From the NCBI GenBank assembly GCA_000004985.1, contig GG738861.1: 64,000 nt of DNA. The stretch is one strand, 5' to 3'. Each line of letters opens with the position of its first letter. Positions within the stretch are counted from its first letter, which is position 1. A model generated the notes under the pieces. The model did not search any database. It was not told the origin of the DNA and worked only from the letters and a program-made list of their open reading frames with translations. The DNA is from Naegleria gruberi (Eukaryota). The position numbers and the translations under genes were made by a program. Of the stretch, positions 4,531-61,682 are shown piece after piece.

Positions 4531-5107
4531 ATGGACTGTAAATAAACTTTGGTACACTGTAACTTCATCAAGCAATACAAAAATATTGAACCAGTGGTGG
4601 AAATTTCCAATATTCGAAACTTTCGAATAGCACTGTGAAATGGAAAGTCAAATCATCTAGATACCCCCACAAATGAGAATTCAAGCAATCCAGATTACAA
4701 GATTCGTGTATGAATGAGAATACAACAACTTCTGGATTGTTCAATTTAAATGTCGTTGGCTAAGTTGACCAACAAAATGATTTCGTTACAATCTTTCTAC
4801 AGTCCCACAAAGTCACAATCAATCAATACCTTTCCTTACTAGCACGAATCAACAATAACAAACTGGCATAACATGTCTCTATTCAGCAACTCATCTGCCA
4901 AACGTCAATTTTTATGTCGCACTCAAAAATCTTGAAAAATACATACGGCTGTTTTCACTACACAATCCTTCTCGCATTATCCAGTCAATTATCAATAATG
5001 ACAGATCTCTAATTTTTCCAAGACGCACAAAAGTGTCAGCTGCCACATGTTTAATAACATTGAACCACCAACTTCCTATTCTCTTCTCTATCATCATTAA
5101 AAAAAAT

Positions 5108-8100: not shown

Positions 8101-9136
8101 TCCATCTCCATATTCTCAAAGTAGATTTGGATTACAATTATCTCATGGTGAATGGGTTGACTTGTTGAAGGGAAGAATTTTCATCAAGGTTTCCTCTACT
8201 GAAAATCCAAATGGTCACTTGAGAGCTCAATTGTACTGTAGTGGTAAATGTAATTTGCCACCAGCAGTTTCAACAACTTCTCCATGTACTGTTAAGAACG
8301 CATCTCAAGTTATTACCTTGTACGATGAAGGAGCTACCTTCAAGTCAACTGGATTTACCAATGGTCCTTATGCTAGTACTAGTCCTGATTACTATGTTGC
8401 CAACATTACCTATCCATTCAATCCAATTTGTGGTAATTCTTCTTATTACTTTGGTCTCAAGAAGGGTGGATTCCAACTTTACAGAGGTTCAGTTGTCAAT
8501 GTCGATACCAGTGTTTACAAGTACTTTGAATTTTTCATTAAGGGAACCAATAACTCTGGTGTGATTGAATTGGTCACTAGTTTTGCTTACTACAATACCA
8601 CTTCAAAGACCTATATTAATATCAAGACTGGTATGCCAACCAATGCTACTTATGTTCAACACTACAAGATTGATGATACTCGTATCACCAGAGTTAGATA
8701 TCCACTTGCTGATATTGGATTCCAAGGAGTTCAACCATTCAGTAAATTCGCCTTCTACTTGGGTAACCAGGGACAATACAGAGAAATGATTATTGACAAT
8801 ATTCGTTTCGTTGGTGATCAAGGAACTGAAGAAACATCCAGATTTATCACTTCAAGTGAAATTAAGACCTGGGGATCTGTTTCTACATGTGGTGCATCAG
8901 CTAGTCCAGATGTTGATCCATTGAAGATGTCATCCTTATTCTTTGATGTCACCAATGAAGTGAGATCAGGTCAAGAAACACCTATTGAACCAGGTACTTC
9001 ATCTATTCCTGCACCTTCATCAAGCAATACTGCCATTCCAAGAGCTTCTGCTTTTTCTGGTGCTTCTGCTATTGGAATGAATATGCTCATCATGGTTATT
9101 GTTGCTTTGGTTTCATCCTTCTTCATTGCTTTCTAA
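5108..9136 (+). CDS. Secreted or GPI/TM-anchored G8-domain plus parallel beta-helix protein (CEMIP/TMEM2-like). Two exons: 5108-6399 and 6445-9136
   Basis: N-terminal signal peptide (LFLLLLIVSLVTCQ). G8-like segment (LRSITVLNGGSLIFDN...WIMGSATCPI...VLTFYG...SKGIGFLSGSRVQIFG). A 'GRYSFHLH' motif like GRYPIHFH of CEMIP/TMEM2. Many NxS/T sequons. C-terminal hydrophobic tail (IGMNMLIMVIVALVSSFFIAF). An intron with GTAAGT and TTTTAG boundaries joins the two ORFs in frame. Confidence 0.6.
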
Positions 9137-18092: not shown

Positions 18093-20219
18093 TTAATTAT
18101 TGAAATTCCTAGCGATTCTTGGCATAAAATTTTTCATTGTGTTTGCTAAAAACTGAGCTGATGGTAAATCTCTCTTTCTCTGATCATCTGCAGAGGTTGT
18201 TGCAGTTGAAGAGCTTTCATGACTTGATGTTGGAAGAGAGGATGCTTGATCATTTGTTGAGGAAGAAATGGAGTCTAAGGGAGGACCACAATTTGGTGGT
18301 GAAATGTTGACAACGAGAGCTTCAATTGCATTCATAATAGGTCCATAAACTTTGGTTGTTCTTCCATATTTTGAGGAAAAGTGTTTTAGTCCTCTCATAT
18401 CTCTATCCAAGGAATTGAGAATATTTGTTTTAATCAGAGGTACATTTGAAATTTCATTATCAAAAAATAATTCGAAATGTACTTGGGCTGCCAGAGCAAA
18501 TGCAAATATAAAACTTGATAACATGCCTGGGAAATAGGGATTATCAACAATTTCACTAATTTCATCCGCATATTTGAGCATTTCCAATTTCACAAATCGT
18601 TTGTCCTTTGGATTCTTTGCGAGGACCACTCTTAATGCTTCAAGTCTGTGTAAAGCAACATTGAGTTTGTCCATCATTAGACCTATTTGTACATATTCTG
18701 GAACATGTGATCTTCCTTTGTGGCTCTTCTTCATTAAAATGTGTAAATCATCCAATACAGACATTTGCTGCGCAAAAGTAAATTCATTAAGGTCCGCATC
18801 AAGTATTTCAACAAAATTCTGTGGTAATTCATTTCCTGTTGCTATTTTGTAAGACACTGCAACTAGATTGCTATATTTTTGGCCCTTATTCCAATCCAAT
18901 CTATTGTCATAGAAAAATATACTCGTAACTCCTCTCTTCTTATCTAAATTATTTACAATAAAATGTTCGCTATTTCCAAAACATGGCAAACCTCGAGCAA
19001 TTTGTCGTGCTCTTCTTTTAAAATACTGGTCAACCAGTGTTAAATAATTACTCGAAAGTTCATCCTCTCCCTCTCCAGCTAAAAAGAATGAAATATAATT
19101 ACATGTGCAGGCAACAGCAAATGATTCCAAATCATCATAAATTTTCCCTAAATACTTTTTACACTCGTTAAATGCTTCAATGGCTTTGTCTCTTCTGCCC
19201 ATGCTGCAGAGTTTTGAAATTTCAATACTTTGTAATGGCTTAACAACTTACTATTGGTCACACAGAGCCTGAATTGAGTAAAAAAGTGAAAGACTATATT
19301 CATTATCATCTAATTCTTCCGTTCCATTTCGAAAAAACAAATCCTCCATTCTCGTTTGTTGCATAGTTGACATTCCCATTGACAACTTTCTATAATAAAT
19401 ATCTACAGTTTGTTTTTTTACAGAATTCTTTACAAAAGTATGAGCCCATTGTGTTTGTGGTTCCATATTTTGATTCCAAATCATTAAATATTTCAAATTA
19501 TCCTCAATTTTATCTGAATGATGATCTTTATCCTTCTTATTCTTTCTAATATATTGTTTGTTCTTTCCTGGTGTATATTTACATTCCCGTCCATAGGTCA
19601 CACATTCTGTGCATTTCGGTTGTTTTTTATCACATTTCCTGTGCAGTTTTCTGCAACCAACACAACTCAGTGTTGGTTTAAATTCGCCATCATGATTCGT
19701 TCGACTTTGACTAGAATTAGATATTGATAATGGTACCACAGCAGTAGCAGTAGTACTACTATTCGTTTCATTATTACTATTTTCGTCCAACATTGTCATT
19801 GATCCAACAATATTACTATTATGACTAACAAGTAAAACTCTTTCCGAAGGCAAGGCTTCAACACTTTCTAGCCTATTTTCCTTTGATTTTTCCATATTCA
19901 TCATCATCACACCATCACCAGAGCATGTTGATATTAATTGATGATCACAACTAGTACTACCTACTACTCCATCATGATATTGCCGTTGCTGTTGATATGA
20001 ATGTTGTTGTTGTTGATGAAATTTGTTATTCGGGTGTGGTGTTGATGCTCTGTTGAGGTCTTTGGGCATTTTTCTTGAGATTTGAACCACAGCACAAGCG
20101 GTGTTTGAAAGGAGATTGAGAATTTGCTGAAACATTGTAATGTTTATTAACATTGAACAAGTTGATTGATTGGATAGGTTCTTGGATAAGAGGTTAATAA
20201 GGCAATTGCCTCTTTTCAT
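18093..20219 (-). CDS. Zn(II)2Cys6 (fungal-type) binuclear-cluster transcription factor. Two exons: ~20130-19252 and 19203-18093
   Basis: 'CVGCRKLHRKCDKKQPKCTECVTYGRECKY' fits CX2CX6CX5-6CX2CX6-8C. A 48-nt GTAAGT...CTGCAG intron joins in frame to a downstream region resembling the fungal transcription-factor middle-homology domain. The true start is uncertain; the ORF-track ATG overlaps the stop of the neighbouring gene. Confidence 0.6.
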
Positions 20220-29085: not shown

Positions 29086-31453
29086 TTAATCATCTTTTTT
29101 ACAACATTTGATTTTTTGTGTAATTTCATGATATTTCAACAGAATCCATTGAATAATTCTCTCTCCTTGATATTTAATACTAAAACATAGAGAATCTGGA
29201 CATGATTGCCAAATGACCAAAGCACCAATGAAATAGAAAACAAAGGCAAAACTCAAAATCATGGAAATGTAAAAATTATCCAACTCTCTCACATATCCCT
29301 TCAATGAAATTGACTTTTCAAACATGTTATTATAGTGAGCAATTTCATGAACATAGAGCAATTCATTGAGATATCTCAAAAATGATAAATAAGGTAAAAA
29401 TGGAAATGGTAATGGCATTCCAGAAAGTTCTGGAAGTGAAGGAGTCAAACCAGCAAACATGTAATTAATAAAAATAAATACTACACAAGTAATTTGTGCA
29501 ACACTTTCACTTAATAGAGTTGAAATGATATATCCAATTGGAAATGTTGTAAACATTGCTAAAAATGTAAATGAAAAATAGAATCCAAATGTTTCTCTTG
29601 GTTTTACAATGAAATAAAAAGCCAATGTAAAGAATAAAGCATCAAGTACAATGTAAATCAATGAATAGATGCATTTGGTAAAATAATATACCATGGTGTT
29701 AATTCCACTTTCAATTTCCCTTTTTCGGAAATTAACTTTCTCAGCACCAAATATTTTCAATGAACTCATAATTGATGTCAAGCTCATGGCCAAAACAAGA
29801 GTTCCAGTAAATCCTGTAATACTATCAACATTTGGTTGTCCACAAATTTCTTTCATTTGAGATGGACATGAATCGTATATGGATTTAGAACTTTGTCCTT
29901 GGAAAACTAAATTTCCAGAAAATAAAGCAGCAATAATGAAACCACCAATAGCATTTAAAATTAAATCACCCAATAAGGTAGTCAATTGGTGAATAGTTTG
30001 TAAGAAACATCTCAATAAACATGCAACAGCTTGAACATAGAATGGCACATGACGTATTACAATATTGCTATTACTGTTTCCAATATTAGTAGTAAAGCTA
30101 TTACTAGAATTAGCAGCAATATCACTGGTAGCTAAAAGTTCTTGTTGTGATTGACTGCCATTAGTTATTGCCATCACATTCGAAAGTGAACAAATAAAAT
30201 TATACTTATTATTCGACATACCATCCACTAAAAATAGAAAATTAAATTCCAAATAGGAAATTTCCATAAATGTAAAATTAAAAAATAATTTTGTTTAATT
30301 CTTACCTCTTTCCCATGACTGCAGTAAATGATTTTGCAGGAATAAAACCTGAAACATTTTTCAATAATGTTCTTTTTGGTCCACTCACTTTAAGATTTTT
30401 AAAAACAATATTAACACCTGAAGGTTTTTCAGACTTTCCAAAATAGGTAACTATGGAAAGCCAAGAAAATAAAAATTCCTGATAATTCACTGGATCAAAA
30501 TTAGAAATTGATTCATGAATATAAAAACAAGCCACACAACATATAATAATCTGCACCACTGTAATCCAAAATATTTTTAACATGTCATTTAAAATTGAAG
30601 TTTGAGAATCGTCGACAAGTAAGTGAAATAGTCCACTAATATTCTTGACAGATTCAAAATTTGATGTTTTAATTCTAATGGCAATAGTATAAGTTTGATT
30701 AAATATTTGACTAGTATTAGTACTAGTTGTTGTGAGGGTAGTGTTTGTAATAGTTAATGTTCCATTATTGGTAGTATTATTTCCATTTTTGGTATTATTT
30801 AAAATAATTGTTTGATTATATTGAGTAATAATTGTTTGATTATTTCTAAAATCATTACTAGTCAACCGCCATTGTTTTGTAAAAAATCCTGAATAAGTTT
30901 TTTCCACATTTGTAACATCTGGTGTATAATAATCCAAACTTCCATTTATAGATTGATTATATTGCTGAAATAATGAATAATCCTTGAAAAATATTAAATT
31001 AGTTTCCACATTCATTGCATATAAAAATAGCAATACATTTGAATCACTTGGTTTCGTCTTGTTTATCACAGTTTCTAATACATTCGTCTTGTTTCTATCC
31101 AATGGATTAATTCTCACTTGTTTAAACCAAAAATTTCTAGTAGAATTATTGGTAATATCAGAAAAGGAAACACTTTCGATATTTCTAGAAAATTCCCTAA
31201 CTTTTTCCATTGAAACATTAATAATAATTAGAGAGGCAATTAAATTAAATGTGAAAAAGAAAAGAACGAGAATTGTGAGAAACCAAAATGATTTCACAAT
31301 TGTTAGAAACCAGTATGAATTATTCGAAACTACTTTCTGGAAGAGAACTTTTCTATTTTGAAAAATGGCATTGATGATGGCTAGCAGTGGTGCAATCAGT
31401 GCACATGTGAAGAAAATAACGAGGGAGATGGAGGTTAGTGCATCCCACAACAT
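29086..31453 (-). CDS. ABCG-type paralog that lacks the nucleotide-binding-domain core (N-terminal TM/loop module plus ABC2-type TMD only)
   Basis: Exon 1 (31453-30306) encodes TM, a glycosylated loop, TM, then 'VSGFIPAKSFTAVMGKR', which stops just inside Walker A. A 79-nt GTAAG...TTTTTAG intron (30305-30228) leads directly into the six-TM ABC2 domain (30227-29086), which is paralogous to the neighbour's TMD ('AEKVNFRKREIESGINTMVYYF' versus 'REKLNFDRESQSGLNSLVYFIV'). No Q-loop, LSGGQ or Walker B anywhere. With these splice sites the join is out of phase by 1 nt. Confidence 0.55.
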
Positions 31454-31924: not shown

Positions 31925-34848
31925 ATGACATATTACTATCAATCAAATTCCAAGCGGTGTGGTACCATCCTAGCCGTTCTCTTTGTCCTCTCCATTTATG
32001 CCATGTTTGCCATTGCCACCATTGTTTTCATTCTCGTTCAATGTATTTCTATTGGAAACTCTGCTCAACAATTTAACTTTAACATTACCGAGTCAATGTT
32101 TCAATCAGCCCTAACATGTGAAGAAAAATGGTTTCTCATCAAGGAAACTCAACAACCAATCAGAACTTGTTACATTCAGAGAACTTATCAAGTCAATTCG
32201 TCCCTCCTGATTGGTGATGAACATTTGGTGAGTGTTTTTTACTCGAGTGCAGTACCATTTGATTTGTATTATTTCAAGGGAGTGGTGGCATTTTCATTGT
32301 TTAATGCTAGTGGAGTTATTGATCCATTTTCTGTGAATTATTTTCTATCGACAAGAGTGAGATCTGGTTTTAAACAATTGGATTTGTCATTGAAGGATGA
32401 TTTGGAGATTCCTGTACCGTTTTTAATACCTGGAATGGATTTGCCATCGACAGAGGGTCTTCAATTTGCTGTTCGATTGTATACTTTTAATGATAATAGT
32501 ACTACTAATTATGGAAAATTTAAAAATAATTTACCTTCCAAAAATAGTAGTTTGGATACCATTACAGAATTGGAATTAAAAGACAGATATGTGCCATTAT
32601 CTGAAATTACATTCCCTCTCTCCATTTCCCTTTCATACTATATAGAAACAAGCTCAATGGAGAAGAGTATTTACATTCTCGTCTCCATTCTCTGTCTCTT
32701 CCTATTATTCCTCTTCACATTAACTTGCATGACAAGATTTAAACGATTGGTTTCTTCCAGTGGTGAATTAATTGATTTTCTACCAATTACCTTACAGAGA
32801 GTATTCAGAATTTATAGTAATAGAACAAATGATTTTGATTTTTGGATTCAATTTAATGATTTGTCATTTAAGAGTTTTGAGACAGCTGAAGATTCACTCT
32901 CTTTGAAAACTATATTACATCCTGTGAGTGGAGTTATTCCTCCTGGAAGTTTTGTTGCCATTATGGGTGAAAGTGGAAGGTTTGTAAATTATTTTTTTAA
33001 CACTTTACAAAATATTATTCATATTATTTATTGAAATATTAATATAGTGGTAAAACAACATTTATTAATTGTCTAACCAAACGTATAACAGGTGGTATTT
33101 CCAAAGGTACTGTTTCCATATCAGGATTTAAGGTAGATTCTGAATCAATGAAGAGACTTTTTGCAGTTGTTCCACAATCAGATATTATCCATCCATTCAT
33201 GACACCAAAACAATCTTTTTTGGTTAGTTCCATGATTAAAAATGTTGGTGCAAGTCATTCCAAGATTGTCGAAACTGTTTTGGAAGTTTTACAATTGGAA
33301 CAACATGCAAATACTTTGAATGAGAAATTGAGTGGTGGTCAAAAGAAGAGAGTTAACATTGGTTTGGAATTGGTTACCATTCCTAAAATTCTCATTTTGG
33401 TAAGTAATTTATTTTTGTAATATTTTTACAATAATATTTAATAATATTTAAATATTGCATTTAATATGAAATATTGAAAACAATTTAAATAGGATGAACC
33501 TACTACTGGTCTAGATGTTACCACAGCCAATGAATTATGTCGCTCACTAAGAGATTTTGCCACTTACAAGCAAAACAAAACTGTCATGGCTGTCATCCAT
33601 CAACCTTCCTTAACTGCCTTTAATTGTTTCACACATTTAATGCTATTCAAAGAAGGCAAATTATTAAGATTCGACTCGCTTGACAGAATCAAACATGAAA
33701 TTGCCAGCAACCATCAATACTATATTAGTCCCGACAATATCTCCGCCGACCAAGTCATGCAATATATTTATTCGAAACATGAAAAGAATCACTTTGTCCT
33801 TTCTCAATATTCAAGTCCACATGCTGCCAAAATCTATCCTCAATCAGTTTCTACCTTCCTCGTCCAATCCCTTGCAATCATGTACAGAACTTTCATTCAA
33901 ATGAGAATTGATTGGTTCTATTTCATTGTTGACATTCTTTTGAATGCAGTTGCAGGTTTATTAATTGGAATTCTATTTGTGAATAATAGAAATCATTTAT
34001 ATGTTGGATCACCTAATAAGGATATTGCTTTAAATTGTCCAGTTGAAAAGATGTTACAATGCTCATCACCACAAATGGATCATATTTCATCAGTGACTAG
34101 TTTACTAGTTTTGGGAATTAGTTTAACATCTTCAATGAGTGCTTTGAGAGTTTTTGGAAGAGAAAAGTTGAATTTTGATAGAGAATCTCAATCTGGTTTG
34201 AATTCACTTGTTTATTTTATTGTAAAGGATGTGTTGGCATTCTCTCAGATGGTTTTGGTTTCTTTATCTTTTACTAGTTTGTTTTATTTGATGGTATTGC
34301 CAAATATGGATTTTGGATTTTATTTTGGAATATTACTATGTTTATCAATTATTAGTTTTCCAATTGGATATAGTATTTCAATAATATTAAGAGATGAATT
34401 AACACAAATTACAACAGCAGTTGTTATATTCCTGTTTTATATGTTTTCAGGAGCTTCTGTTAGTTTACCATCACTCAGTGATATGAGTCAACCATTTCCT
34501 TTATTACCATATATATCCTATATTAGATATATTAGGGAAATTTTATTTGTTTATGAACTAAATACCAATGCAAATGATTATTACATTAATAAGAGTTTAA
34601 ATCAATTGGGTTATTCATGGAATAACAAATGGTTTTTATTTATCATTTGTTCTGTATTTGCAATTGGTTTGAGATGTATTGCTTATTTACTTTTATGGCA
34701 ATCGAGACCTCAATCATTTACAAAGAGAATTTCAAATCTTTGTACTTCATTGTGGAAGGTTATGAAACAACCATTCGATTTGGTCATTTCAAAAGTTAAG
34801 GAATTAATTAAGAAAATGTTAAAAAAAATGTGTTGCTGTTTTAAATAA
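31925..34848 (+). CDS. ABCG-family half transporter with an extra N-terminal TM/glycosylated-loop module. Three exons: 31925-32979, 33048-33399 and 33493-34848
   Basis: Walker A 'GESGSGKTT' is split by intron 1. Signature 'LSGGQKKRV'. Walker B 'ILILDEPTTGLD' is split by intron 2. H-loop 'MAVIHQPS'. An ABC2-type six-TM domain follows. The N-terminal ~350 aa has TM, an N-glycosylation-rich loop and a second TM. Confidence 0.8.
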
Positions 34849-36574: not shown

Positions 36575-38334
36575 ATGAGTTATAATAGAACAACCAATAA
36601 TAATACTAACAACAATGAGGATAAATCCATCCGAGTTGGAAATAGACTCAATGCAAAGGTGGGTAAAATAGCATCAATGTACAATGCTCTTGATAATGAC
36701 TCTCACGCTACTATTAAGAGAAGAAATCCAATTAGTGGAACCACATCATCCAATGTAACAACCAAAGTTGTTTCAAGCACTGTGCAGACGAGAACAGTGG
36801 CTAAGAAACCAACCCCAACCACACATCATTCTACTGTAAATTCAATGAAACCCTCTGCAGTTACGAATACAAACAAATCGAGAAATGTTGGTGCAGTTTC
36901 AAAACCTGTGGTAAAGACAACAACAAAAACAAGTACTGTGACAAGTAATATTGATAAGAGAGATGCCAATGATAGGAAAGCTGTTGAAAGGAAGGAGGTG
37001 AATGATAAGAAAGCAGAAGTAACAGTTGTCAATAATCATCAGAATAAGTATTTTGATAACTTTAAACCACAACCATTTCAATGTGATGCTTCAAGAATTA
37101 GAAAATATGAACCTAATTATTCTGAAATAGATAAGAGAGCTAGGAATACACCTAAATCTGAGGAAGCTTCTATTGAGAGACTTGCTCAATATTTAACTTC
37201 TCCCTACAATACTGTGGAAGAAAAAGCTAGGTCACTTTACATTTGGATTACATATAATATTGACTATGATGTAGATGGTCTGTATTCTGGAAATGCACAT
37301 TATACTGCAGACACATCCTTTAAGAGTAGAAGAGCTGTGTGCAGTGGATATTCTGATATTTTGAAAAAGATGTGTGACTGCTGTAAAATGGAGTGTGTTA
37401 CAATATCAGGTTGTGCAAAAGGAGCTGGTTATGTGATTGGTGCGCCAGTAGCTTCAAATCATGCATGGTCTGCCATCAAAACTGAAGATGGTCAATATAG
37501 ATTGATCGAGTCAACTTGGGGATCAGGCTATCTTGCACCAAACAGTAGCTCAAAATGGGGATCAGCCTTTGAAAGAAGATTTGTGGATAGGTACTTCTTT
37601 ATGAGTCCATATGAATTCATTGCAGAGCATTTTCCAGACGATTCCAAGTGGCAACTCTTACCAAAAACTGTAACCAAGGAAGAATATGAAAAGAGAGTTG
37701 CTATTAAAGGCAACGGGTTCAGCAATGGATTGAGTTGTGTTTCCCATCCCTATGGGCTTTATACTTTAACTGATTCAAATGTTTGTGAAATTGTGATGAA
37801 AGTTTTTCCAGGAACTGAATCCTTGATCAATCTCTGTGAGGAAAAGAATGGAACAGCTCTCTGGGATGCTGTCAATGTCACATATTCTGACAATAAGGAC
37901 ACAATTACAGCAAAGATTTGTTTCCCAAAAAAGAATGTAAAATATTCTGTCAGAGTGTTTGTTGGAGAAAAGGGAAGTAAATTAGAATGGGTTTGGAGCA
38001 AATGTTCACGGTGAGTCCATCAGCTAAGGTTGATGATAGAGGTTTTCCAACGATGTATTCAGACTTTGGTTCCCTTAATCTTTCCTTGGTCACTCCTAAT
38101 TTTGGTAAATTATCTAAAAACTCAACATACACTCTAGAAATTGCAACCAAAGGAATGCCTATTGATTTAATGATAACAGGAACTAACTCTGGCACTACAA
38201 TGCACAGTCATAAGGGAGGAGGTAATTGTAAATGTTCATTCACAACCGGTGTTGACCCTAACGTTACTGTTTTTGGAAAAACTGATCCAAACACAAGAAA
38301 TTACAAAGGATTACTTGTTTATAAAGTTGGTTAA
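36575..38334 (+). CDS. Transglutaminase-like (kyphoscoliosis-peptidase-type) cysteine-protease-fold protein. The reading frame shifts near 37990-38010
   Basis: TGc catalytic motifs: 'RRAVCSGYSDIL' (Cys), 'NHAWSAIK' (His) and a downstream Asp. A poly-N/T/S/K low-complexity N-terminus. The ORF 37987-38334 continues the protein in another frame and overlaps the first by 28 nt. Confidence 0.55.
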
Positions 38335-39473
38335 TTCTTGAAATCAATTTCCTTACATATCCAATTCAATTTTTTGTTTAAATCTTCATCCATTGTTGAA
38401 TAATCGTTCACATCTCTGAAATAAAAGTACACCTTCTTCTCAAAAGCATCAACTATTACAATGGATTGACTTTTAGACTTCCAGTTTGTAAATCTGGACT
38501 TGTAGTGTACAAACACTTCGTTAATAGTGCTTCTATCATAAAGATGAATATCAATCTTCCTTTCAAGACTATACTTCTCAGTAAGGTCTGTACATGTTCT
38601 ATATTTTTGAACTAGTTCGACTAATTCCTCGCTAAAATTATGGAGTGTCATATATTCATCCGTGAATAAATGAGCATCTTCTATTGAAATGAAGTTATTC
38701 TCATATTTGTTAATATTCCTTATATTTAAAAGACTGCTTAAGGTTTCCACAACCTGATCAGGAGTTTTATCATCTGTTACCATTTCTTTGCATATTTGGT
38801 TTGTTCCCTCTTTAAGGCTTTTTACTTTTTGCCACAGATTATCATTTAAAAATGAATTTGAAATACAATGAGTCGAATTTTTGTCTAAACTTTGAATGAT
38901 CAGTTTGTCTTGCAACTTTTCAGGCCATTGAGACAATGGTTTTCCCATTTCATTTCTAGCGAAAATTCTATTTGTAAAATAAATCAAGTCCTTATTCATG
39001 TCAAACAAATTTCCACAAATAATTATAAAACCCTTTGTTTTTAGCCAATCCTTCTCGCATTCATTAATATGATCCATCAAATCATTATGCTTTAGTAAAT
39101 CGATTAGGAGTTTGCTCCTAATTATTTTAGCTGGTTTTTTAGTTTCAGTAACACATTCCTCAGTTGCTACTAATTGATTATTTACATCCTTATTATACAA
39201 TTCTAGTGTTGGTTTGTTCGTTGAGTAATCATCATCCACGTTAGTTAGAATAGCCATATTTCCATTATCAATATTTATCCCCATCCAAGTATTTCCATAC
39301 ACCAAATCAGTAATACAGCAAATGCAATCATCAATTAATGAAAATGAAGAGGAAGTCGGTCTATCATATTCTTCATCTCGATTCGCCAACATAATGAACG
39401 GATATCTTGCAGATGAAGTTGCTGCATCACAACAATTTGAACCAGTGGTAGTATGAAGAGCAACAATACACAT
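38331..39473 (-). CDS. TANGO2 / NRDE-family protein with a C-terminal extension
   Basis: Starts 'MCIVALHTTTGS...YPFIMLANRDEEYDRPT', matching the TANGO2 N-terminus 'MCI...NRDE'. The ORF-track start is TTG; ATG is at 39473. Confidence 0.6.
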   Translation of the reverse strand: MCIVALHTTTGSNCCDAATSSARYPFIMLANRDEEYDRPTSSSFSLIDDCICCITDLVYGNTWMGINIDNGNMAILTNVDDDYSTNKPTLELYNKDVNNQLVATEECVTETKKPAKIIRSKLLIDLLKHNDLMDHINECEKDWLKTKGFIIICGNLFDMNKDLIYFTNRIFARNEMGKPLSQWPEKLQDKLIIQSLDKNSTHCISNSFLNDNLWQKVKSLKEGTNQICKEMVTDDKTPDQVVETLSSLLNIRNINKYENNFISIEDAHLFTDEYMTLHNFSEELVELVQKYRTCTDLTEKYSLERKIDIHLYDRSTINEVFVHYKSRFTNWKSKSQSIVIVDAFEKKVYFYFRDVNDYSTMDEDLNKKLNWICKEIDFKN

Positions 39474-40065
39474 TTTTTTCAATTTTGATTTTGCAATCCC
39501 GAGTTCATCACATGTTCATTGTTCTTTAAATAATATAAAGCAGAACAAGGTTCATCATGATTCTTTACAATTTGTATTCTTTGGCAAATCTTAAGAAGAT
39601 TATTTTATATTTATCAACACTTAATACATTAAAGAAGTTACAACATCTGTTGTTCCTAGTTGAATTCCTTAACTTTTGTTTGGAAAATATTAAGGATGTA
39701 ATAGTTGTTCGTTGAAGATGAACATGTTCATCATCACTCTCATCTTAATATTTTCCAAATTATAAGTATCAGTTGCCTCGATTCCATAAGAGATATAGTA
39801 AGATTTTTTCTCATCAAAAGTTCGCAAAGAATCTGTGTACATTTTGCTCTCGATTGCAACCAACACTGGTTCCTAATCGAGACTTTTTTGGATACCTGTA
39901 AGACTTTTTAGTGTAGAGGTGTAATGGGTCCTTTGAAAATAAACTGTAAAATTGAGGCAAGCCTTAACGAACTCTCTTCTACAATAGAGCGCCAAGTCTC
40001 TCCTAATAACAAACCACAAAAAAAGATACTAAGGCTGAAGGGAATATATTGAAAATTTTTATCAT

Positions 40066-42091
40066 CATGCCTTCTAATATTAATAATCGTGGTCATAGTG
40101 AAGATGATAGTGATGAGAGGTTGATAAATTCAAGCCTTTCATTGGCTAAACCATCTAATAGAGCAGGTATTCAAACTGATGAGGATTTTGATGTTACAAG
40201 TCTTCATGAAACACAGGAAGCCATCAAAAAGAAATTGTTATTAGCAAAAATGGACTCACAGTATATGGACGACGATGATGATGTTGATAGTGAAGTAAAG
40301 TTTGAAAAGTTATCAACCAAGGGAAGAAGAAACCCAACAAAACTTGCAGAAATGAATTCCGCCTCAAATATGAGTCAAACTTCGTCATTCCAAAGAGGTG
40401 AAAAAAGAAGAGGTATTAGTAGAAGATTTGCCTCAACAATGAACTCTCGTAAAGGTCTAGATACTGGTAGTCAAATGGATACATCAAGCAATTATAGTGA
40501 TGATAACTCTGATACCCAAAGTCAACTTACCTCCGACAGTGGTGCCGATAGATCAACCTTAGATGATGAAGTTGCCTTCACTCATCAAGACGACTTTGTA
40601 CAGTTAAATAATTTGATCTCACAATTTAATATGTGTGGATTCCCAGTTTTAATCTTTGATAATTATGCAACAATAGAATATTTGAATCGAGAAGCAGAAG
40701 ACCTCTTTGGTGTATTCTCCTTCTCTGTTTTGGGAGAACACGTAAGTGAGCTGTTCCTTGAAGATTCAGTTTGTGAAGTACAACAAGTCATTGAAGATTT
40801 TACAGGAAAACCAATCTTCAACAATTCTGATGGTGCATCTGTTACATCAATCAGTAAGGAAGTTGGAGCTGAAGAATTAAAAAAGAGAAAGGATACACTA
40901 ATGAAAATCAGAATATTGAAAGGAAAAGCAACAATACTTAAAACATTTTTCTCTGTTAAAACAAGATTCATTACGATTCAAAAATTGGGAGTTGAACATT
41001 TTGTAGCATATATGGAAGTGATACAAGACAGTATTGAAGAAAAGAAAGAAATGGCTTTGAGAAAGGTTTACGAAGCCATCACAGATTTGTCAGTCATTCC
41101 AATTATTTCAATTTCTCAACAAGGTATTATTCAAACATTCAATACTGCATGCACTGCAACATTTGGATACTTGAAGAAAGATGTTCTAGGTAAAAATGTG
41201 AAAATGTTATGCAATGAAAAGGATAGACAAAAACATGATTACTATCTTCAAAGATATTTGAAAACAGGAGAGAAGAGAGTAGTAGATAAGACAAGATTTT
41301 TGAAAGCTAAAACAAAGAAGGCTAAATCAATCAAGATTGAATTAAGAGTTTCCGAAATTATTGATGTAGGAAGTAGTTCTTCATCATTTGTTGGTTTTAT
41401 CAGAGATGTGAAGAACATGGTAACTAAGGAAGAACAATTGACAAGACTTGCAGACAAGATTTTCCCTAAGAATGTTGCTCAACGTATCAGTATGGGTCAA
41501 CAAGTTATTGATATTTTCGAAATGTGTAGTGTGTTGTTCTGTGACATTGTGGGTTTCACAAAGATGTCGAATGGTAAAAGACCAGAAGAAGTTGTCTCAA
41601 TTCTCCATGAAATTTTTGGTAGCTTTGATGATGTCTGTACAGCTTTCCAATTAGAAAAGATCAAGACAATTGGTGATTGTTACTTTTTAGCTAGTGGTGT
41701 TCCAAAATTCGTTCCTGAACATGCTGATAATATTGTAAAGGGAGGTTTAGCCATGATTCGTGTGATTCAACAATTTTGTAAAAAAGAAACCACTGTAGAC
41801 CTAAAAGTAAGAATTGGTATTCACAGTAGTTGTGATATTATTGCTGGTGTTGTCGGTAAGACTAAACAAACCTATGACTTGTTCGGTAAAGGCATAGAGG
41901 TTGCAGAAATTGTCGAATCAACAGGTAAAACCAATCAAGTGCAAATTAGTAACTCTACCTATCAATTACTGCAATCGGAGAAGCTTAAGAGTTTGTTTAG
42001 TGTTCATTATGAAGAAAAGGAAGAATTGCTTCTTGAAAAGGTTGGCAAAGTTGTTATTCCAGAAAGAACGTGGATTACCGATTTGCAATAA
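40066..42091 (+). CDS. PAS-PAS-(class III nucleotidyl cyclase homology domain) protein with a C1-like single cyclase domain
   Basis: The C-terminus carries CHD motifs: 'LFCDIVGFTKM' (metal Asp 1), 'KIKTIGDCYFLASGVP' (metal Asp 2) and 'RIGIHSSCDIIAGVVG'. Where the canonical 'TVNTASRMES' lies it reads 'GIEVAEIVES', so Asn and Arg are absent. Two upstream PAS-like blocks are present: 'FPVLIFDNYATIEYLNREAEDLFGV' and 'IPIISISQQGIIQTFNTACTATFGYLKKDVLGKNVKMLC'. Confidence 0.7.
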
Positions 42092-42215: not shown

Positions 42216-42512
42216 TTATTGTTGAGCAACTTGTTCAGTCTTTTCCTTTTCTTGGAATTGTCTGACGTAGATCTTTCTGGCATTGAATTCAGATTCGTTG
42301 AACATGGTGATAGCCTTAGCAGCAGCTTCAGCAGTATCGAATTCAACAAAACCAATACCCTTGGATCTCTTAGTTTGAGCATCAGTGAAGATTCTAGCGT
42401 AGGTAACGTTACCAGCAGCAGAGAAGTGTTCCTTCAAAGCAGACCAGTTGGTTCTGTATGGCAAGTTAGAAACAAAAACCTTGGTGTCAGATGGTGCTTG
42501 GGTGGTGGACAT
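42216..42512 (-). CDS. Small single-RRM RNA-binding protein
   Basis: RNP2 'KVFVSNL' and RNP1 'KGIGFVEF', about 98 aa from the ATG at 42512. The ORF-track start is TTG. Confidence 0.65.
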   Translation of the reverse strand: MSTTQAPSDTKVFVSNLPYRTNWSALKEHFSAAGNVTYARIFTDAQTKRSKGIGFVEFDTAEAAAKAITMFNESEFNARKIYVRQFQEKEKTEQVAQQ

Positions 42513-43980
42513 TATGTTTGATGTATTTTTTTTCAACAAAAAGAGATTCAAAATATTCTTTTACACTCGCGAGTCAACGCAAGCAAACTTGCCGTGTTTG
42601 ACTCAGAGCTTAACGGTGTCGTGTTCAACTCTCTCGTTTGATTGGTTGGAGATTAAACAGGGCGTTTGTTACTCATCTGATGGTGTACAAGCTCTCTTTG
42701 AAGAACAACGGTTGCTATTACAGCAACATTGTTTATTTGGATATCTACACAGCATGGGAGAGAGAGGTGAGCGAATAGAATATTAAAATAATGTGCATCA
42801 CTGATATTGAATCATGAAATTGAATTTTAAAATTGATAATCAATTATTAAATGTATTTTAAATTTTCCAAGTGGTTCATCATGTCCAATAATTTTATACA
42901 TTTCGACAATTTTAAAGGAAATTATCCAAAAGAACCTTAAGCTAAAGAAGATATCAATAACAAATAATTAAAAATCAAATAGATACTCTCGATTGAATAT
43001 TTGAAAAATTCAGTAGATAGTAATGGCGGTTTTGATTAGATAAGACAATTTCCATCATTATTTGCCCATCCCGAAAGAGTACAAATTCAATCTTATCCTC
43101 TCCATTCGGGACGCACCAGTCGATCAAATAGGCGCAATTATTGTCTTTGTCCACTCTCTTCTATCAATACAACTTCTTTGGAAGAAAACAAGTGAAAAAA
43201 AACAATCTATTTGCAATGTCTTATCTGAGAAGGAATATTAACAAGTCTCTTATTCCGATATTGATTGCCGGAAGCTATTATGCTAATTCATTAAGAACTC
43301 AATCAACATCTTCTTTTAATAAGAAGGAATTGGAATCAATTTCTTCCAACAATACTCAATCAACAAACAATATACAATCATCATCCTTCGCACCAACAAT
43401 TCGGCCTTCTAATATACAATCCCTATCAGTGGAAAATCTACGTGAATCCATTCATAATGTTCTCACAACCATTCTTCATACCTTCATGAAGGTGCATTAA
43501 ATTTTAGTCTCGCGCATCACACACTTGTAAATAAACACTTCAGAATGTAAATAAACACACACAGAATATTATACCCAACAACAATAATATTGCATCAGAT
43601 AAATATTAGTATTGAATGAGTCAAGCCACAGGATTGATTACAATTTCTATTGAAACTTCATCCTTGCCTTTTCCGAGGACCATCAAGGAGTGCTTAAATT
43701 TCGATTGACCTTCAAGTCCTTATCCATTTCCCTCCCAACAATACATCAACAACCATCACAAGTTACTTCCCTGAAGTTGCAAATGATCCATAAATTACAA
43801 AGAGGAGGATCTTCCATCATGCATCACAACTTAAAAATCTCAACAAAAAAAAAAACTCTAGATATCAAAAGCCTTTTGTGCAAAAATCATTTAAAATTTT
43901 TAAACAAGTTCAAAAGAATCAATTTTTAAACGTTACCCAGACAAAAATACAAAGAAGAAATTACACAACTGCCGATCAAA

Positions 43981-57339: not shown

Positions 57340-58948
57340 TTAAACCAAATTGTGAGTTGGCAAATTTGTTGCACTAACAGTACATGGTGTAGTATCTGGA
57401 GTGACGTAGGTATTAGTAGTGAATTTCAATGGAGTCAAAGAGACACCACCAATAGTACTATCAAAGGTCAATTCAACCATAGCAGCAGTCCATCCACTTG
57501 TTGGATTATTAATTAAAACTTGCCATTCGAGTGATTTAGTTTCAATTAAGGTTTGATTTTGCCAAACATTGGATCCAATGGTGGTAGTTCTGAAATCGTG
57601 TGCAGTTGGATTGGTGGCGTACCAAACTTTAACACTGGATGGCTTAATTCCATTACTAACTGAAACATAAATGACAACACCTGCATTCACATATTCATGA
57701 GAGAAACTGTACTTTGGAAGAATTTGATTATTCAATCTGGAAGTGTAGAATGTTCCAAGAACAGCAAGAACATCAGTGTTGAGCATGTAGTGACCAGTGT
57801 TTGGAAGGAAACGAACATACTTTTCACCCTTAATCTTTGAATAGGAAAGTGCATTAAGATCTCTATACATTAAGGTGAGATTAAATTATGAAATTATGAA
57901 AGAAAACTTACGGAGCAAAGAATTCATCACCCATAGAAAGTATTTGATACTTTGGAATAGTTTGCAATCTAACATAATTAGCTGGATCAACAATATCTGT
58001 CAAACTGTCAAAAACATCATTGAAAAGATAATCAATGACACCTGCAGAAACATAATCATGGAAAGCAAGAGGCCAAGCACATAAATTATTATAAGTTCTC
58101 AAAATGAAATCTCTTGTTCCAAATACAGGAATAACCATTGGAGCAATTGCAGAAACTCTTGAATCAACTGCAGCCAACAACAAGGTGGTCCATCTGATAT
58201 TCAATAGGAGGAGATTAGTTAATATATTATTCGAATGGTTAATAATGAAAGTGATGAAAAAGAACTTACCCTCTCTTTGAAGCACCACTAACAAAGAATG
58301 TTTCAACATTATGATTAACTTGTTTCTTAACAAAAGCAACAACAGCATCCATTGCCATCTTACTTCCCTTAACTTGAGGTAATTGAGTAACATACAATAA
58401 ATTAGATGGATCACTTGTATTACTCATGAAACGATTCCAACCGAATCCAATAATAGCATCTTCAGTTCTACTAGTATGAGTAGAATCAGAAGCATAGGTA
58501 ATTGGTTGATTTGGTACAATATATACAATAGCAGTAATACTCTTTGTGGTAACTGCAAGATTATAAGTGAAGGAAGGAACATAAATTGGTGAAGCTGATG
58601 AATCAGTTGCTCCAGGAACATCAGCATTGGTATTACCATTTGTGATAAAGAAGAAACTTTCATGATTATTCTTATTCAATTCATTTGGAATTGTAATTTC
58701 CAAATAATGGAACCAGGTGTGAGCTGAGCCAACCTCTGATTCAGGCAACCAAGTGAGAGAGGTAACATTCAATGTGTAGATGGTAGCACCAGTGATGGTT
58801 CTACTACTGATTAATTTGTAGGCATAAACACTTTCTGGTAAATTAACATAGTTTCCCAAAGATTGTTTGAAATTGACTGAAGTTGAGTGGACGAAACTGC
58901 ACAAACAGACCATGAGAATGGCCATAATCACAATATTTAACTTGTTCA
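57340..58948 (-). CDS. Secreted alpha/beta-hydrolase-like protein, PhoPQ-activated-pathogenicity-related (PqaA) family-like. Three exons: 58948-58270, 58203-57912 and 57862-57340
   Basis: Signal peptide (MNKLNIVIMAILMVCLCSFVHS). 'FFVSGASKRGWTTLLLAAVD' is reconstituted across intron 1 (GTAAGT...ATATCAG). 'LSMGDEFFAP|DLNALSY' lies across intron 2 (GTAAGT...TGTATAG). The family assignment is from memory of the PqaA family, not from a search. Confidence 0.45.
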
Positions 58949-59913
58949 TTGTTAAATAGTATTGTTTTGTTTTTTTAAAGTTTAATACATAGTGTTTGCT
59001 CCAGCACAATGTTTTTATTGTGTTGGAGCATTTATTTAATTATGGCATTTGATTGACAGTTTTGGTTTATTATGCGCTTAATTTTCCTTCATGTGTTGTG
59101 TGTTTACAACTTTTCGCAACTATTGCATTAACACTTTAATAATAATAGAGTAATAGATCTATTTATGGAAAGTTTCAATAGTTTTCAGAACTCGTAAAAC
59201 AAGCTTTAAGGTATAATAACAATGCTTTTGCTGACAATCAATATTATGTTTTTGGCTAAGATGATACACTAAAGGAATTCTTCTGTTTAGAGCAATGCGT
59301 AATCATTAGTTAATAGTTAAGACGAAATATTTCCAATAACTGCGTCTCGTCAAGCAGAGTCTGTGCATGGTATGCAAAACTGTAGTGGTATCTTTTGTAA
59401 TATACCTTAATCATGAATACATTAATGGCAGACGATCTTAACCTTAATAATTTCTATTCAAAAAACAATTTACCTATGAGTAATTCCTTATTACAATTTG
59501 AACTGTTTAAGAAATTCAATGCAATAAACAACAGCTTCAAATTCATCTTGTTTTCCTCTTTCCAATATCTAAAAGATCATTTAGTTAACTTTCCTCACCT
59601 TCCTCCTACAGAGGAGCAAGGGAGAAACGAATATTGAAATCTCTTCCTCTTCATTGAATACTCTCAACACATTGCCCTCCAGTAAAATTTGTGAAATCAA
59701 AAGACCCTGGAAAATTCTCAAAGGATAAAAAATTAAGCAACAAGTTGAATTGGATTATGTGAATGTTTAGCAAAGAGTACCATTTAGGAAATAGTATTAC
59801 TTTGCAAATACCACCCATTATAATAATCATCATCTCTGTTCTAATGATTATAATGGGTGGTCACTAACACAATTTTCAAATGATTAGTGACAAATCAACA
59901 CAATTAAAAAAAA

Positions 59914-61682
59914 ATGAGAGTCCACCAACACAAATGTTCAGTTTGTCTTGAAGATGACGATGAAGAATTGGCACTCTATTCCTGTGTTCAATGTAATGTC
60001 AAATTATGTGATTTCCACAAGAAGAAACACTCAAAAAAATATTCCACTCATGAAATTAGTCCACTTTCAGATCAAATTTGTCCTCAACACAATTTAGCCA
60101 TAAATATTTATTGTAGAACTTGTGAGAGTTTGGTTTGTCCAACGTGTGGTTTTACAAAGGAACATAAAGGACATGATTGTGCTCTGATAGATGATGCAAG
60201 TGAAGAGGAACGAATCTTATTGCCGAAACTAGTGGATGAACTAACTTTGAAAATTGAAGAATGGCATAAGGAGAAGGGTAGTTCACAAGATGAAGATTTA
60301 AAAACAGAGTTGAGTGTTATTGAAAAGAAGAAAATGGATTTGAAAGAACAAGTTTGTCATGAAATTGAAAAGATGAAACAAAAATTGGAATTGAGAAAGG
60401 AAGAATTGAATAGGGAAATTGATACAAAATGTAATGAAAAGAGTTCTATTGTGAATAATCTGATTTCCTTCAAGGAAAAGACTCTAGATTTGGAACGAAC
60501 TTTTAAGGAAATTGACAATATGTCAAATTTTGAAATGATGTTTGCCAAGGTTGTTAAATACAATCAAGTTAAGAAGGATTTCAAATTGGCAACTGAAAAG
60601 GAACTATTCACTCACTTATCAGATCTTCATAACATTGATCTCATTAACTTTTACACAATTGTCAGTCAGGTAATTACCGTCGTTGAGAAAATGGGAAAGA
60701 TTAAAGCAGAATCCATTCAAAAGAAAGATTTAAAAGTGGAATTCACCAATCTAGGAGCAGAAGGAAGAACTGGTCCCACACAGATTGGGAATTTTTACAA
60801 TAACAATCTTCACATGAAAGATAAGGTCACTCTCATTAACAGTGGAATTCAACAGTGGACAGTTCCATTCACTGGAAAGTATAAAATCATTGCTGCAGGT
60901 GCATGTGGTGGATCAAATCCTTCCAATGGAAAGAGAGGAGGTTACGGAGCTATCATTTCAGGTGATTTCACTTTGGAAAGGAATACAATTTTACAAATAC
61001 TTGTTGGTCAGCAGGGAAGTTCTGCTATTGGTGGAAGTGGTGGTGGTGGTGCAGGTGGTGGTGGTGGAACATTTATTTGCTCAATTGGTAATAATAGCAG
61101 CAAGAAAATTGAGAATTCTTCTCCAATCTTGTTAATTGCAGCAGCTGGAGGAAATGGTGCTAGTTGGAGTAGTTGGAAAACGAATGGACCTGGTGGTAGA
61201 TTACCAAAAGCTCAAGATGCTTCACTCTCAATTGGAAAAGCTGGTAGAGGAAGTGGTGGTGCTGGATGGATTAATGATGGAGAAATGGATAAAACTTCCA
61301 CTAATGGATTTGGTGTCAGTTTCTGTAGAGGTGGTCAAGGTGGTAGTTATAATGGTTCTTATGGAGCCAATGGTGGATTTGGTGGTGGAGGTGGTAAGTT
61401 ACTTCAATTCCACATTTATTTACAAATATTTTACAATTATTTTACAATTATGAATATATTCATATTATTATGATTTTAATTTCAAATTAATTTAAATAAG
61501 CTTCTGTACATGAAGGTGGAGGTGGTGGAGGTTATATTGGTGGATCATGTGTTCCTGAGAATAAGTATGATATACCATTTCCTGATTATGGAGCTATTTC
61601 ATTTAATGGAGGAATTAATCAAGATGGAAAGGAAGATGCTAATAGTACACATGGATATGTAACTATTCAATTACTTCAATAA
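59914..61682 (+). CDS. B-box zinc-finger / coiled-coil (TRIM-like) protein fused to an ALK-type glycine-rich domain. Two exons: 59914-61393 and 61501-61682
   Basis: Two B-box-like Cys/His clusters ('CSVCLEDDDEELALYSCVQCNVKLCDFHKKKH' and 'CPQHNLAINIYCRTCESLVCPTCGFTKEHKGHDC'). About 200 aa of coiled coil. The C-terminus is 'GACGGSNPSNGKRGGYGAIISGD...GGSGGGGAGGGGGTF...AAAGGNGAS...GGAGWINDGE...GGQGGSYNGSYGANGGFGGGGG|A SVHEGGGGGGYIGGSCVP'. A 107-nt GTAAGT...AATAAG intron closes in frame. Confidence 0.6.

Follow-up and report, generated by a model that had tools for sequence, protein, structure and literature searches.

Class III nucleotide cyclases build their active site across a dimer interface, one chain supplying two metal-binding Asp residues and the other supplying the base-recognizing pair together with a transition-state-stabilizing Asn and Arg (PMC12264004). 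In chytrid NeoR this Asn/Arg motif (NxxxR) is missing, its two positions being taken by T455 and K459; the protein is inactive alone and gives its metal Asp residues to the canonical cyclases RGC1/RGC2 (PMC12264004). The NeoR/RGC heterodimer has one active site, and its degenerate site is allosteric, with activity rising up to ninefold when nucleotide binding there is abolished (PMC12264004). Here we describe a protein with a comparable defect from Naegleria gruberi (Heterolobosea, Discoba), encoded within a 64,000-nucleotide stretch of contig GG738861.1 (assembly GCA_000004985.1), hereafter referred to as the window. The protein, NAEGRDRAFT_66293, is the product of a gene at positions 40067–42091 (+) and joins two PAS domains to a single class III cyclase homology domain (CHD). 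This CHD retains the residues for binding metal, phosphate and adenine and lacks both the Asn and the Arg, and the second PAS domain has a predicted heme pocket of the FixL type.

The CHD (residues 484–642; 41516–41992 (+)) was identified by Pfam profile PF00211 (151.7 bits, E 2.1e-44), by matches to PDB sequences and by a residue table. NAEGRDRAFT_66293 produced 68 PDB sequence matches, mostly CHDs, plus heme-PAS chains. The domain keeps five of the seven scored catalytic-site residues, namely the metal-binding D493 (SVLFCDIVGFT) and D537 (KTIGDCY), the phosphate Arg R582, and the adenine-specifying K533 and D604. The remaining two fall in the degenerate transition-state segment YDLFGKGIEVAEIVESTG (41873–41926 (+)), where E611 takes the place of the Asn and I615 that of the Arg, both in HMMER alignments with the C1 and C2 domains of adenylate cyclase (AC) 9 and in a MAFFT alignment that combined these two domains with 21 canonical CHDs. 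The canonical D608, S614 and S618 are likewise replaced; the canonical relatives read YD(L/V)(W/F)GDxVNxASRMESxG in this region. The α4 segment is gap-free in these alignments, anchored by Y603-D604...G607 and E617...G620. A shift of register was considered as well, and rejected: since residues 603–620 hold neither Asn nor Arg, no other register restores NxxxR. The initial annotation, made from the DNA letters and their translations, had described a single CHD with both metal Asp residues and without the transition-state Asn and Arg. Both types of alignment bear this out, all three strings that it quoted (FCDIVGFT, TIGDCY and the degenerate segment) are present, and the different register that it saw as a possible objection does not materialize.

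When the CHD was compared with PDB sequences, C1/α halves consistently outscored C2/β halves: 107 versus 64 bits for AC9 C1 and C2, 84 versus 55 for AC5 C1 and AC2 C2, and 96 versus 62 bits for the α1 and β1 subunits of soluble guanylate cyclase (sGC), margins of 30–45 bits. The earlier characterization of the domain as C1-like therefore stands as regards the best structure matches, but not as regards K533 and D604, which are kept here whereas in AC9 C1 a Ser replaces the Lys. Column by column against canonical relatives, the losses specific to this clade cluster in the α4 motif GDxVNxASRMES (D608, N611, S614, R615, S618). Judged by these columns, the CHD looks like a homodimer-type domain that lost only this motif. 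It has the metal Asp residues and the Lys/Asp pair of a self-sufficient homodimeric cyclase without the same-chain NxxxR, and it shares with C1/α-type half-sites the retention of metal Asp residues and the loss of the transition-state Arg. No clade-specific basic residue that might compensate was found in α4; the clade-typical K558 and K658 lie outside the segment.

The defect is a property of a family. A homolog search, together with a profile search that covered 1.84 billion representatives, yielded 13 full-length relatives, which include orthologs from N. fowleri, N. lovaniensis and Willaertia magna, one environmental ortholog, and paralogs, among them four others of N. gruberi (NAEGRDRAFT_82217, _50144, _72607 and _48447); N. 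gruberi holds at least five paralogs of this NxxxR-less family. A search with the CHD only returned almost exclusively bacterial REC-CHD and PAS-CHD proteins, which we used as canonical comparators, and no Naegleria partner emerged from it. Each of the 21 canonical relatives compared has the Asn and the Arg, and each of the 13 family members lacks both; in the family, E, A, T, L or S occupies the Asn position and I, L, M or S the Arg position. By comparison, K533, D537 and D604 are kept in 13 of 13, R582 in 12 (one Lys) and D493 in 11 (one Glu, one gene-model gap). The five dictyostelid cyclases (ACA, ACR/ACB, ACG, sGC and GCA) against which the protein had initially been set are beside the point for an N. 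gruberi protein with heterolobosean relatives.

We reconstructed a neighbor-joining tree from the linker and CHD (191 columns, 100 bootstraps). The 13-member Naegleria/Willaertia clade is monophyletic with 100% bootstrap support, as is the orthogroup of NAEGRDRAFT_66293, and the clade nests (65% support) among heme-PAS-CHD proteins of Naegleria, Percolomonas and metagenomes that have the full catalytic set. Within the family, sequence identity amounts to 48–82% in the CHD, 62–94% in the linker and 49–83% in PAS-B versus 14–43% in the N-terminal region, and CHD identity is 74–82% in the N. fowleri, N. lovaniensis and Willaertia orthologs. The far stronger conservation of the CHD suggests that the domain is functional and under purifying selection. 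As read from the tree and alignments, NxxxR was lost once in the ancestor and then retained and duplicated, so that the NxxxR-less CHD is the selected state. This history, under purifying selection, is incompatible with a gene in decay.

Two other observations concern these proteins and their motif. NAEGRDRAFT_82217 (P0008; PAS-A/PAS-B/CHD) has a near-neighbor paralog on the same N. gruberi scaffold, NAEGRDRAFT_82220 (P0011), in which the same N-terminus and PAS tandem lead, in place of a CHD, to a GH5 cellulase-like domain (PF00150) with a hydrophobic segment at the C-terminus; the gene model may be a fusion, or else the domains were truly exchanged. In an environmental eukaryote-like pair unrelated to the family (P0221/P0244), NxxxR was lost independently (FDLWGDAVEFASEMESTG; LDVWGEAAIFANELESSG).

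Turning to the sensor part, PAS-B (residues 335–448; 41069–41410 (+)) matched Pfam PAS (PF00989, E 3.9e-17), which along with PF00211 had been named as a check on the initial annotation. In phmmer searches, PAS-B matched RmFixL (1d06, E 3.5e-19), BjFixL (E 2.5e-15) and DosP (E 1e-7). The heme-pocket motif KHDYYLQRYLKTGEKRVVDKTRF (41231–41299 (+)) was located by residue-by-residue alignment to FixL, the query stretch KHDYYLQRYLKTGEKRVVDKTR aligning residue for residue to RmFixL. H390, in an HDxY context, occupies the place of the proximal His (H194 in RmFixL, H200 in BjFixL), and none of the 10 sequences deviates from it; D391 and R396, the latter corresponding to the propionate Arg (BjFixL R206), are also invariant. 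R410 corresponds to the distal O2-binding Arg (BjFixL R220), which hydrogen-bonds bound O2, and is present in nine of the ten sequences, the tenth having a gene-model gap there. We infer that PAS-B is a FixL-type heme PAS domain predicted to sense gas or redox state, most simply O2. Because the FixL-type pocket residues, the proximal His and both Arg, are conserved, the predicted input, originally given as small-molecule, redox or light, can be specified as gas or redox sensing by heme. The literature covered, which did not extend to the 2010 genome paper, contains no report tying Naegleria cyclases to heme or FixL, and no mention of NAEGRDRAFT_66293, its paralogs, their accession numbers or a heme-PAS-coupled class III cyclase in Naegleria.

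FixL-like PAS domains recur in other settings. The top matches of the family profile are giant proteins (P0143–P0181) of 1,700–5,500 residues, each with about 13 tandem FixL-like PAS-B copies, and a Bodo saltans fragment (P0012) has five PAS-B copies, each with the HDxYL heme motif; such long putative heme-PAS arrays look unusual and seemingly undescribed. Diatoms (Conticribra weissflogii and relatives; P0194/P0235) have heme-PAS-CHD fusions with up to seven FixL-like PAS repeats and a canonical CHD.

NAEGRDRAFT_66293 is soluble, and from N- to C-terminus it consists of a probably disordered region, divergent PAS-A, PAS-B, a transducer-like helix and the CHD. The N-terminal region (residues 1–171; 40067–40579 (+)) is Ser/Asp-rich and of low complexity, and its low family identity and a predicted local distance difference test score (pLDDT) of about 30 indicate that it is probably disordered. 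A basic/Ser motif with the consensus RGISRR(F/L)xS (40400–40440; residues ~113–125) is kept in this otherwise unconserved region in most family members and may be a phosphorylation or docking site. An AlphaFold2 model of the full protein, built from a 10-sequence alignment, reached pLDDT 52 and a predicted TM-score (pTM) of 0.33, which is too poor for residue-level conclusions, and we limited its use to the order of secondary structures and a cautious Foldseek run. In this run, the top match to the low-confidence model was sGC α1, extending over PAS, helix and CHD, and isolated CHDs were matched with TM-scores (TMt) of 0.62–0.70.

The two PAS domains called at the outset differ in how clearly they are recognized: the assignment of PAS-B is strong, and PAS-A (residues 172–320; 40580–41026 (+)) is identified with less confidence. 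PAS-A has an inserted variable loop/helix and matched Pfam PAS_4 (29.5 bits) and PAS_8 (22.7 bits) barely over their cut-offs and with its N-terminal half only (residues ~187–239). In the low-confidence model its secondary structures follow the PAS-like order β-β-helices-β-β-β, and Foldseek aligned the PAS-A/PAS-B tandem of this model to the FixL tandem PAS structure 8js5. A PAS-A profile matched nothing meaningful among PDB sequences, and we therefore propose no cofactor for this domain. The invariant CGFP in its first strand (40634–40645; C190–P193) has no recognizable cofactor signature.

Between PAS-B and the CHD lies a cyclase-transducer-like helix of 32 residues, VTKEEQLTRLADKIFPKNVAQRISMGQQVIDI (residues 452–483; 41420–41515 (+)). 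Its stretch LADKIFPKNVAQRI was aligned by eye and by BLASTP/MAFFT, without a dedicated profile, to the 'LLLNILPxxIAxRLK' that precedes bacterial, protist and heterolobosean CHDs; PF07701 gave no match in a Pfam scan of the protein. At the other end, a family-specific tail (residues 643–674; 41993–42088 (+)), ending in IPERTWITDLQ, replaces the canonical 'KGKG...TY' strand. The Pfam CHD match ends at model position 158 of 183, compared with 180 of 183 in the canonical N. gruberi paralog NAEGRDRAFT_45237 (P0305). K658 within the tail is present in 11 of the 13 family members.

How might such a protein work? We tentatively favor, at slightly less than even probability, a mechanism by analogy with known half-site cyclases, in which NAEGRDRAFT_66293 is a heme-PAS subunit of C1/α-like type that pairs with an NxxxR-bearing cyclase to give oxygen- or redox-controlled cAMP synthesis. 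PAS-B would bind heme b through H390, as suggested by homology, and R410 and R396 would sense how the heme is ligated (O2, possibly CO or NO) or its redox state. From PAS-B, the signal would then travel through the putative transducer helix to the single CHD, which would supply two metal Asp residues, the phosphate Arg and the adenine-type Lys/Asp pair, without NxxxR. Since the active site is formed across the dimer interface and the chain has no Asn/Arg, both sites of a homodimer would be without transition-state stabilization. From mutagenesis of other class III cyclases we infer that such a homodimer would bind ATP and metal but have poor or absent activity. The likeliest course is that the protein forms a heterodimer with an NxxxR-bearing cyclase, as do AC C1, sGC α and NeoR. 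In this heterodimer, the partner would contribute Lys, Asp, Asn and Arg to the competent site, and NAEGRDRAFT_66293 the metals; the second site, degenerate but still nucleotide-binding, would probably be allosteric and served by the invariant K533 and D604. Synthesis of cAMP would thereby come under the control of the heme ligand, that is, oxygen. A need for a partner or a non-catalytic role, as initially suggested, is reasonable in the light of these analogies, and NAEGRDRAFT_66293 probably depends on a complete cyclase, to which it would be a regulatory subunit.

The best candidate for this partner is NAEGRDRAFT_45237, a PAS-PAS-CHD paralog of 938 residues. It has all six catalytic residues (FCDIVGFT, KTMGDNY, YDVFGDNVNLASRMESSG), a full-length Pfam CHD match and orthologs in N. 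lovaniensis and N. fowleri, and it is 35% identical to NAEGRDRAFT_66293 over PAS-B, linker and CHD. It is a plausible donor of Asn and Arg to NAEGRDRAFT_66293. Several points, however, weigh against the proposed heterodimer. With all six residues, NAEGRDRAFT_45237 needs no partner and, to judge from these residues, should be active alone. Its linker is five residues shorter in the BLASTP alignment (three by a count of the residues between PAS-B and the CHD), a difference that could throw a hetero-coiled-coil out of register, and PAS and linker modules usually favor homodimerization. The retention of K533 and D604 in all 13 family members, although superfluous for a metal-donating subunit, argues that the protein's own Lys/Asp face matters, be it for allostery or for catalysis. 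Heme binding, too, is a prediction from sequence. Finally, N. gruberi has some 80–100 cyclases (at least 81 in one pangenome count; PMC9928731), and the true partner among them, if any, may be a different protein.

The same conservation can be read without any heterodimer. NAEGRDRAFT_66293 could be a pseudo-cyclase that pairs with itself or with paralogs sharing the NxxxR loss, holds ATP-Mg in two impaired sites and produces cAMP barely if at all, its CHD then being a nucleotide-binding or interaction output of the heme-PAS signal that might, for example, sequester or allosterically regulate proteins. The pattern in which metal, phosphate and base residues are conserved and only the Asn/Arg face is remodeled fits selection for binding without turnover. 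Parallel homodimers are typical of PAS and linker modules, the same defect occurs in at least five paralogs, and the conserved C-terminal tail of the family (IPExTWITxL) is a possible interaction surface. Even so, we consider such a pseudo-cyclase rather unlikely: the protein has no other output domain, the metal ligands that are often gone in purely regulatory pseudo-enzymes are here kept almost throughout, and the known NxxxR-less CHDs (AC C1, sGC α and NeoR) all operate in catalytic heterodimers.

It is distinctly unlikely, in our estimate, that the homodimer is itself an active adenylate cyclase switched by the heme-ligand state, which would do without the canonical Asn/Arg either by being slow or by using a substitute such as K558, K600, K658 or, via an extra metal, E611. 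The kept five of seven scored residues are in keeping with this, as they include a Lys/Asp pair that is relevant only if the protein's own substrate-binding face is used, and the family is expanded and conserved as are families of working enzymes. Moreover, mutants of other class III cyclases in Asn or Arg have about 1–3% of activity left. If activity were found after all, NxxxR would be dispensable in some contexts, the more surprising outcome. What speaks against it is the invariance of both residues throughout the canonical relatives and an α4 segment without any clade-specific basic residue to stand in for Arg. The Asn position is too variable in the family for E611 to be a conserved replacement, and the catalytic domain of NeoR, with the same defect, is inactive and was not rescued by restoring N and R (PMC12264004).

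The missing motif itself, and nothing further, could raise the suspicion that the gene is in decay, is wrongly annotated or is one piece of a two-CHD gene, or that the alignment hides Asn/Arg; we regard such artefacts as highly improbable. The coding sequence is a complete single exon of 674 codons plus stop, and its product shows 100% identity and 100% coverage with the annotated entry 'predicted protein [Naegleria gruberi]' (NAEGRDRAFT_66293, XP_002678578.1, UniProt D2VBQ0). The open reading frame (ORF) runs without interruption from 40049 to 42091 (+), with its first ATG at 40067 and its stop codon at 42089–42091. The ORF announced in the initial annotation is thus real, although its length of 675 residues included the stop and its start at 40066 was one position early; a frame read from 40066 has 89 stop codons and was discarded. 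Genes on the opposite strand flank the locus on both sides, a TANGO2 homolog at 38331–39482 and a small RRM protein at 42216–42551, and the N. fowleri, N. lovaniensis and W. magna orthologs have the same start and C-terminal end. Taken together, the flanking genes, the ortholog termini and the identical annotated model exclude missing exons and mean that the protein is not a piece of a two-CHD gene, an objection likewise foreseen at the outset. The orthologs and the gap-free residues 603–620 also argue against mis-annotation or misalignment.

In the 64-kb window (~33% G+C), tblastn with the CHD found no second CHD, and Pfam scans of 30 other ORFs found no gene of cyclic nucleotide signaling; the neighbors are unrelated housekeeping genes. 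Some of the other ORFs have noteworthy domains. The ORF at 19251–20219 (−) of this heterolobosean genome encodes a DNA-binding domain of the 'fungal' Zn(2)-Cys(6) binuclear cluster type (PF00172, E 1.1e-8). Two adjoining ORFs at 5033–9136 (+) have G8 and CEMIP β-helix/CEMIP-X domains and probably belong, as exons, to a single large protein, secreted or at the surface. A single ORF at 59914–61473 (+) joins a B-box zinc finger to an ALK/LTK-type glycine-rich domain, and the ORF adjoining it (58266–59009 (−)) matches the bacterial 'PhoPQ-activated pathogenicity-related protein' family (PF10142, E 5.6e-38). Two ORFs with ABC-2-type transporter membrane domains, at 29086–30267 (−) and 33586–34848 (+), are encoded on opposite strands with about 3 kb between them and may be parts of paralogous ABCG-like genes.

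We know of no oxygen sensor described in Naegleria, an organism that, according to its genome paper, reportedly moves between oxic and hypoxic sediments and can turn to anaerobic metabolism. The protein is a concrete, if predicted, candidate for such a sensor, conserved in the brain-eating N. fowleri. A wider extrapolation, possible but doubtful, is that heterolobosean amoebae including N. fowleri have a combinatorial oxygen-sensing cAMP system, in which interchangeable NxxxR-less subunits with FixL-type heme-PAS domains (at least five in N. gruberi) are each paired with a canonical catalytic subunit. If so, a class III cyclase would for the first time be seen under heme-PAS control, in a soluble counterpart, of independent origin in Discoba, of the NeoR/RGC and sGC α/β design. 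The family also represents a natural experiment, in that a homodimer-type CHD without its transition-state motif was kept and duplicated over the Naegleria–Willaertia divergence, and it might offer a gas- or redox-switchable module for synthetic control of cAMP. Our findings support the notion that regulatory subunits have arisen time and again from degenerate class III half-sites, AC C1, sGC α and NeoR being examples; the present family would add one more independent origin. Degenerate half-sites are already a familiar theme, however, and the heterodimer step proposed for NAEGRDRAFT_66293 is a prediction.

Among known systems, NeoR offers the closest parallel. Like NAEGRDRAFT_66293, it is a single-CHD sensor protein that lacks NxxxR (T/K in NeoR, E/I here), keeps the metal Asp and base-discriminating residues, and coexists with canonical paralogs of the same architecture. 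However, NeoR is a membrane rhodopsin and NAEGRDRAFT_66293 a soluble heme-PAS tandem; the base residues are guanine-type E/C in NeoR and adenine-type K/D here; the NeoR and RGC genes are clustered, whereas the candidate partner is not linked to NAEGRDRAFT_66293 within the window; and the NeoR/RGC heterodimer is demonstrated, while the one proposed here is predicted.

The best structure matches by sequence are AC9, AC8 and AC5 C1 and sGC α1, the last also by Foldseek. With C1 of transmembrane ACs and with sGC α, the protein shares the kept metal Asp residues and phosphate Arg and the lost transition-state Arg, and with sGC also the PAS-helix-CHD order. AC C1 differs in keeping the Asn and losing the base-specifying Lys (Ser in AC9 C1), the reverse of what is seen here, and in being fused to C2 in one chain, whereas NAEGRDRAFT_66293 has a single CHD. 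In sGC, heme resides in the H-NOX domain of the β subunit and not, as predicted here, in a PAS domain.

On the sensor side, PAS-B resembles FixL and DosP in its HDxYLxRY...R motif with the proximal His, propionate Arg and distal Arg, and the succession of a non-heme PAS-A and a predicted heme PAS-B is that of BjFixL. FixL and DosP act through a histidine kinase or a c-di-GMP phosphodiesterase, whereas the predicted heme domain of NAEGRDRAFT_66293 is coupled to a class III CHD in a eukaryotic host. Another discoban protist, Leishmania, also combines a heme sensor with a class III cyclase: HemAC-Lm is a globin-coupled, O2-sensing adenylate cyclase, which differs in having a globin instead of PAS and a canonical catalytic domain reported to be active. 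The nearest phylogenetic neighbors with the same PAS-linker-CHD order are NAEGRDRAFT_45237, N. lovaniensis C9374_010461, Percolomonas A0A7S1KT32 and the diatom multi-PAS cyclases; the canonical heme-PAS-CHDs of this group keep the six catalytic residues and the C-terminal KGxG strand, and NAEGRDRAFT_66293 does not. It is the combination of a predicted heme-PAS sensor, a soluble chain, a retained base-recognizing pair and the loss of both Asn and Arg that sets NAEGRDRAFT_66293 off from NeoR, sGC α and AC C1.

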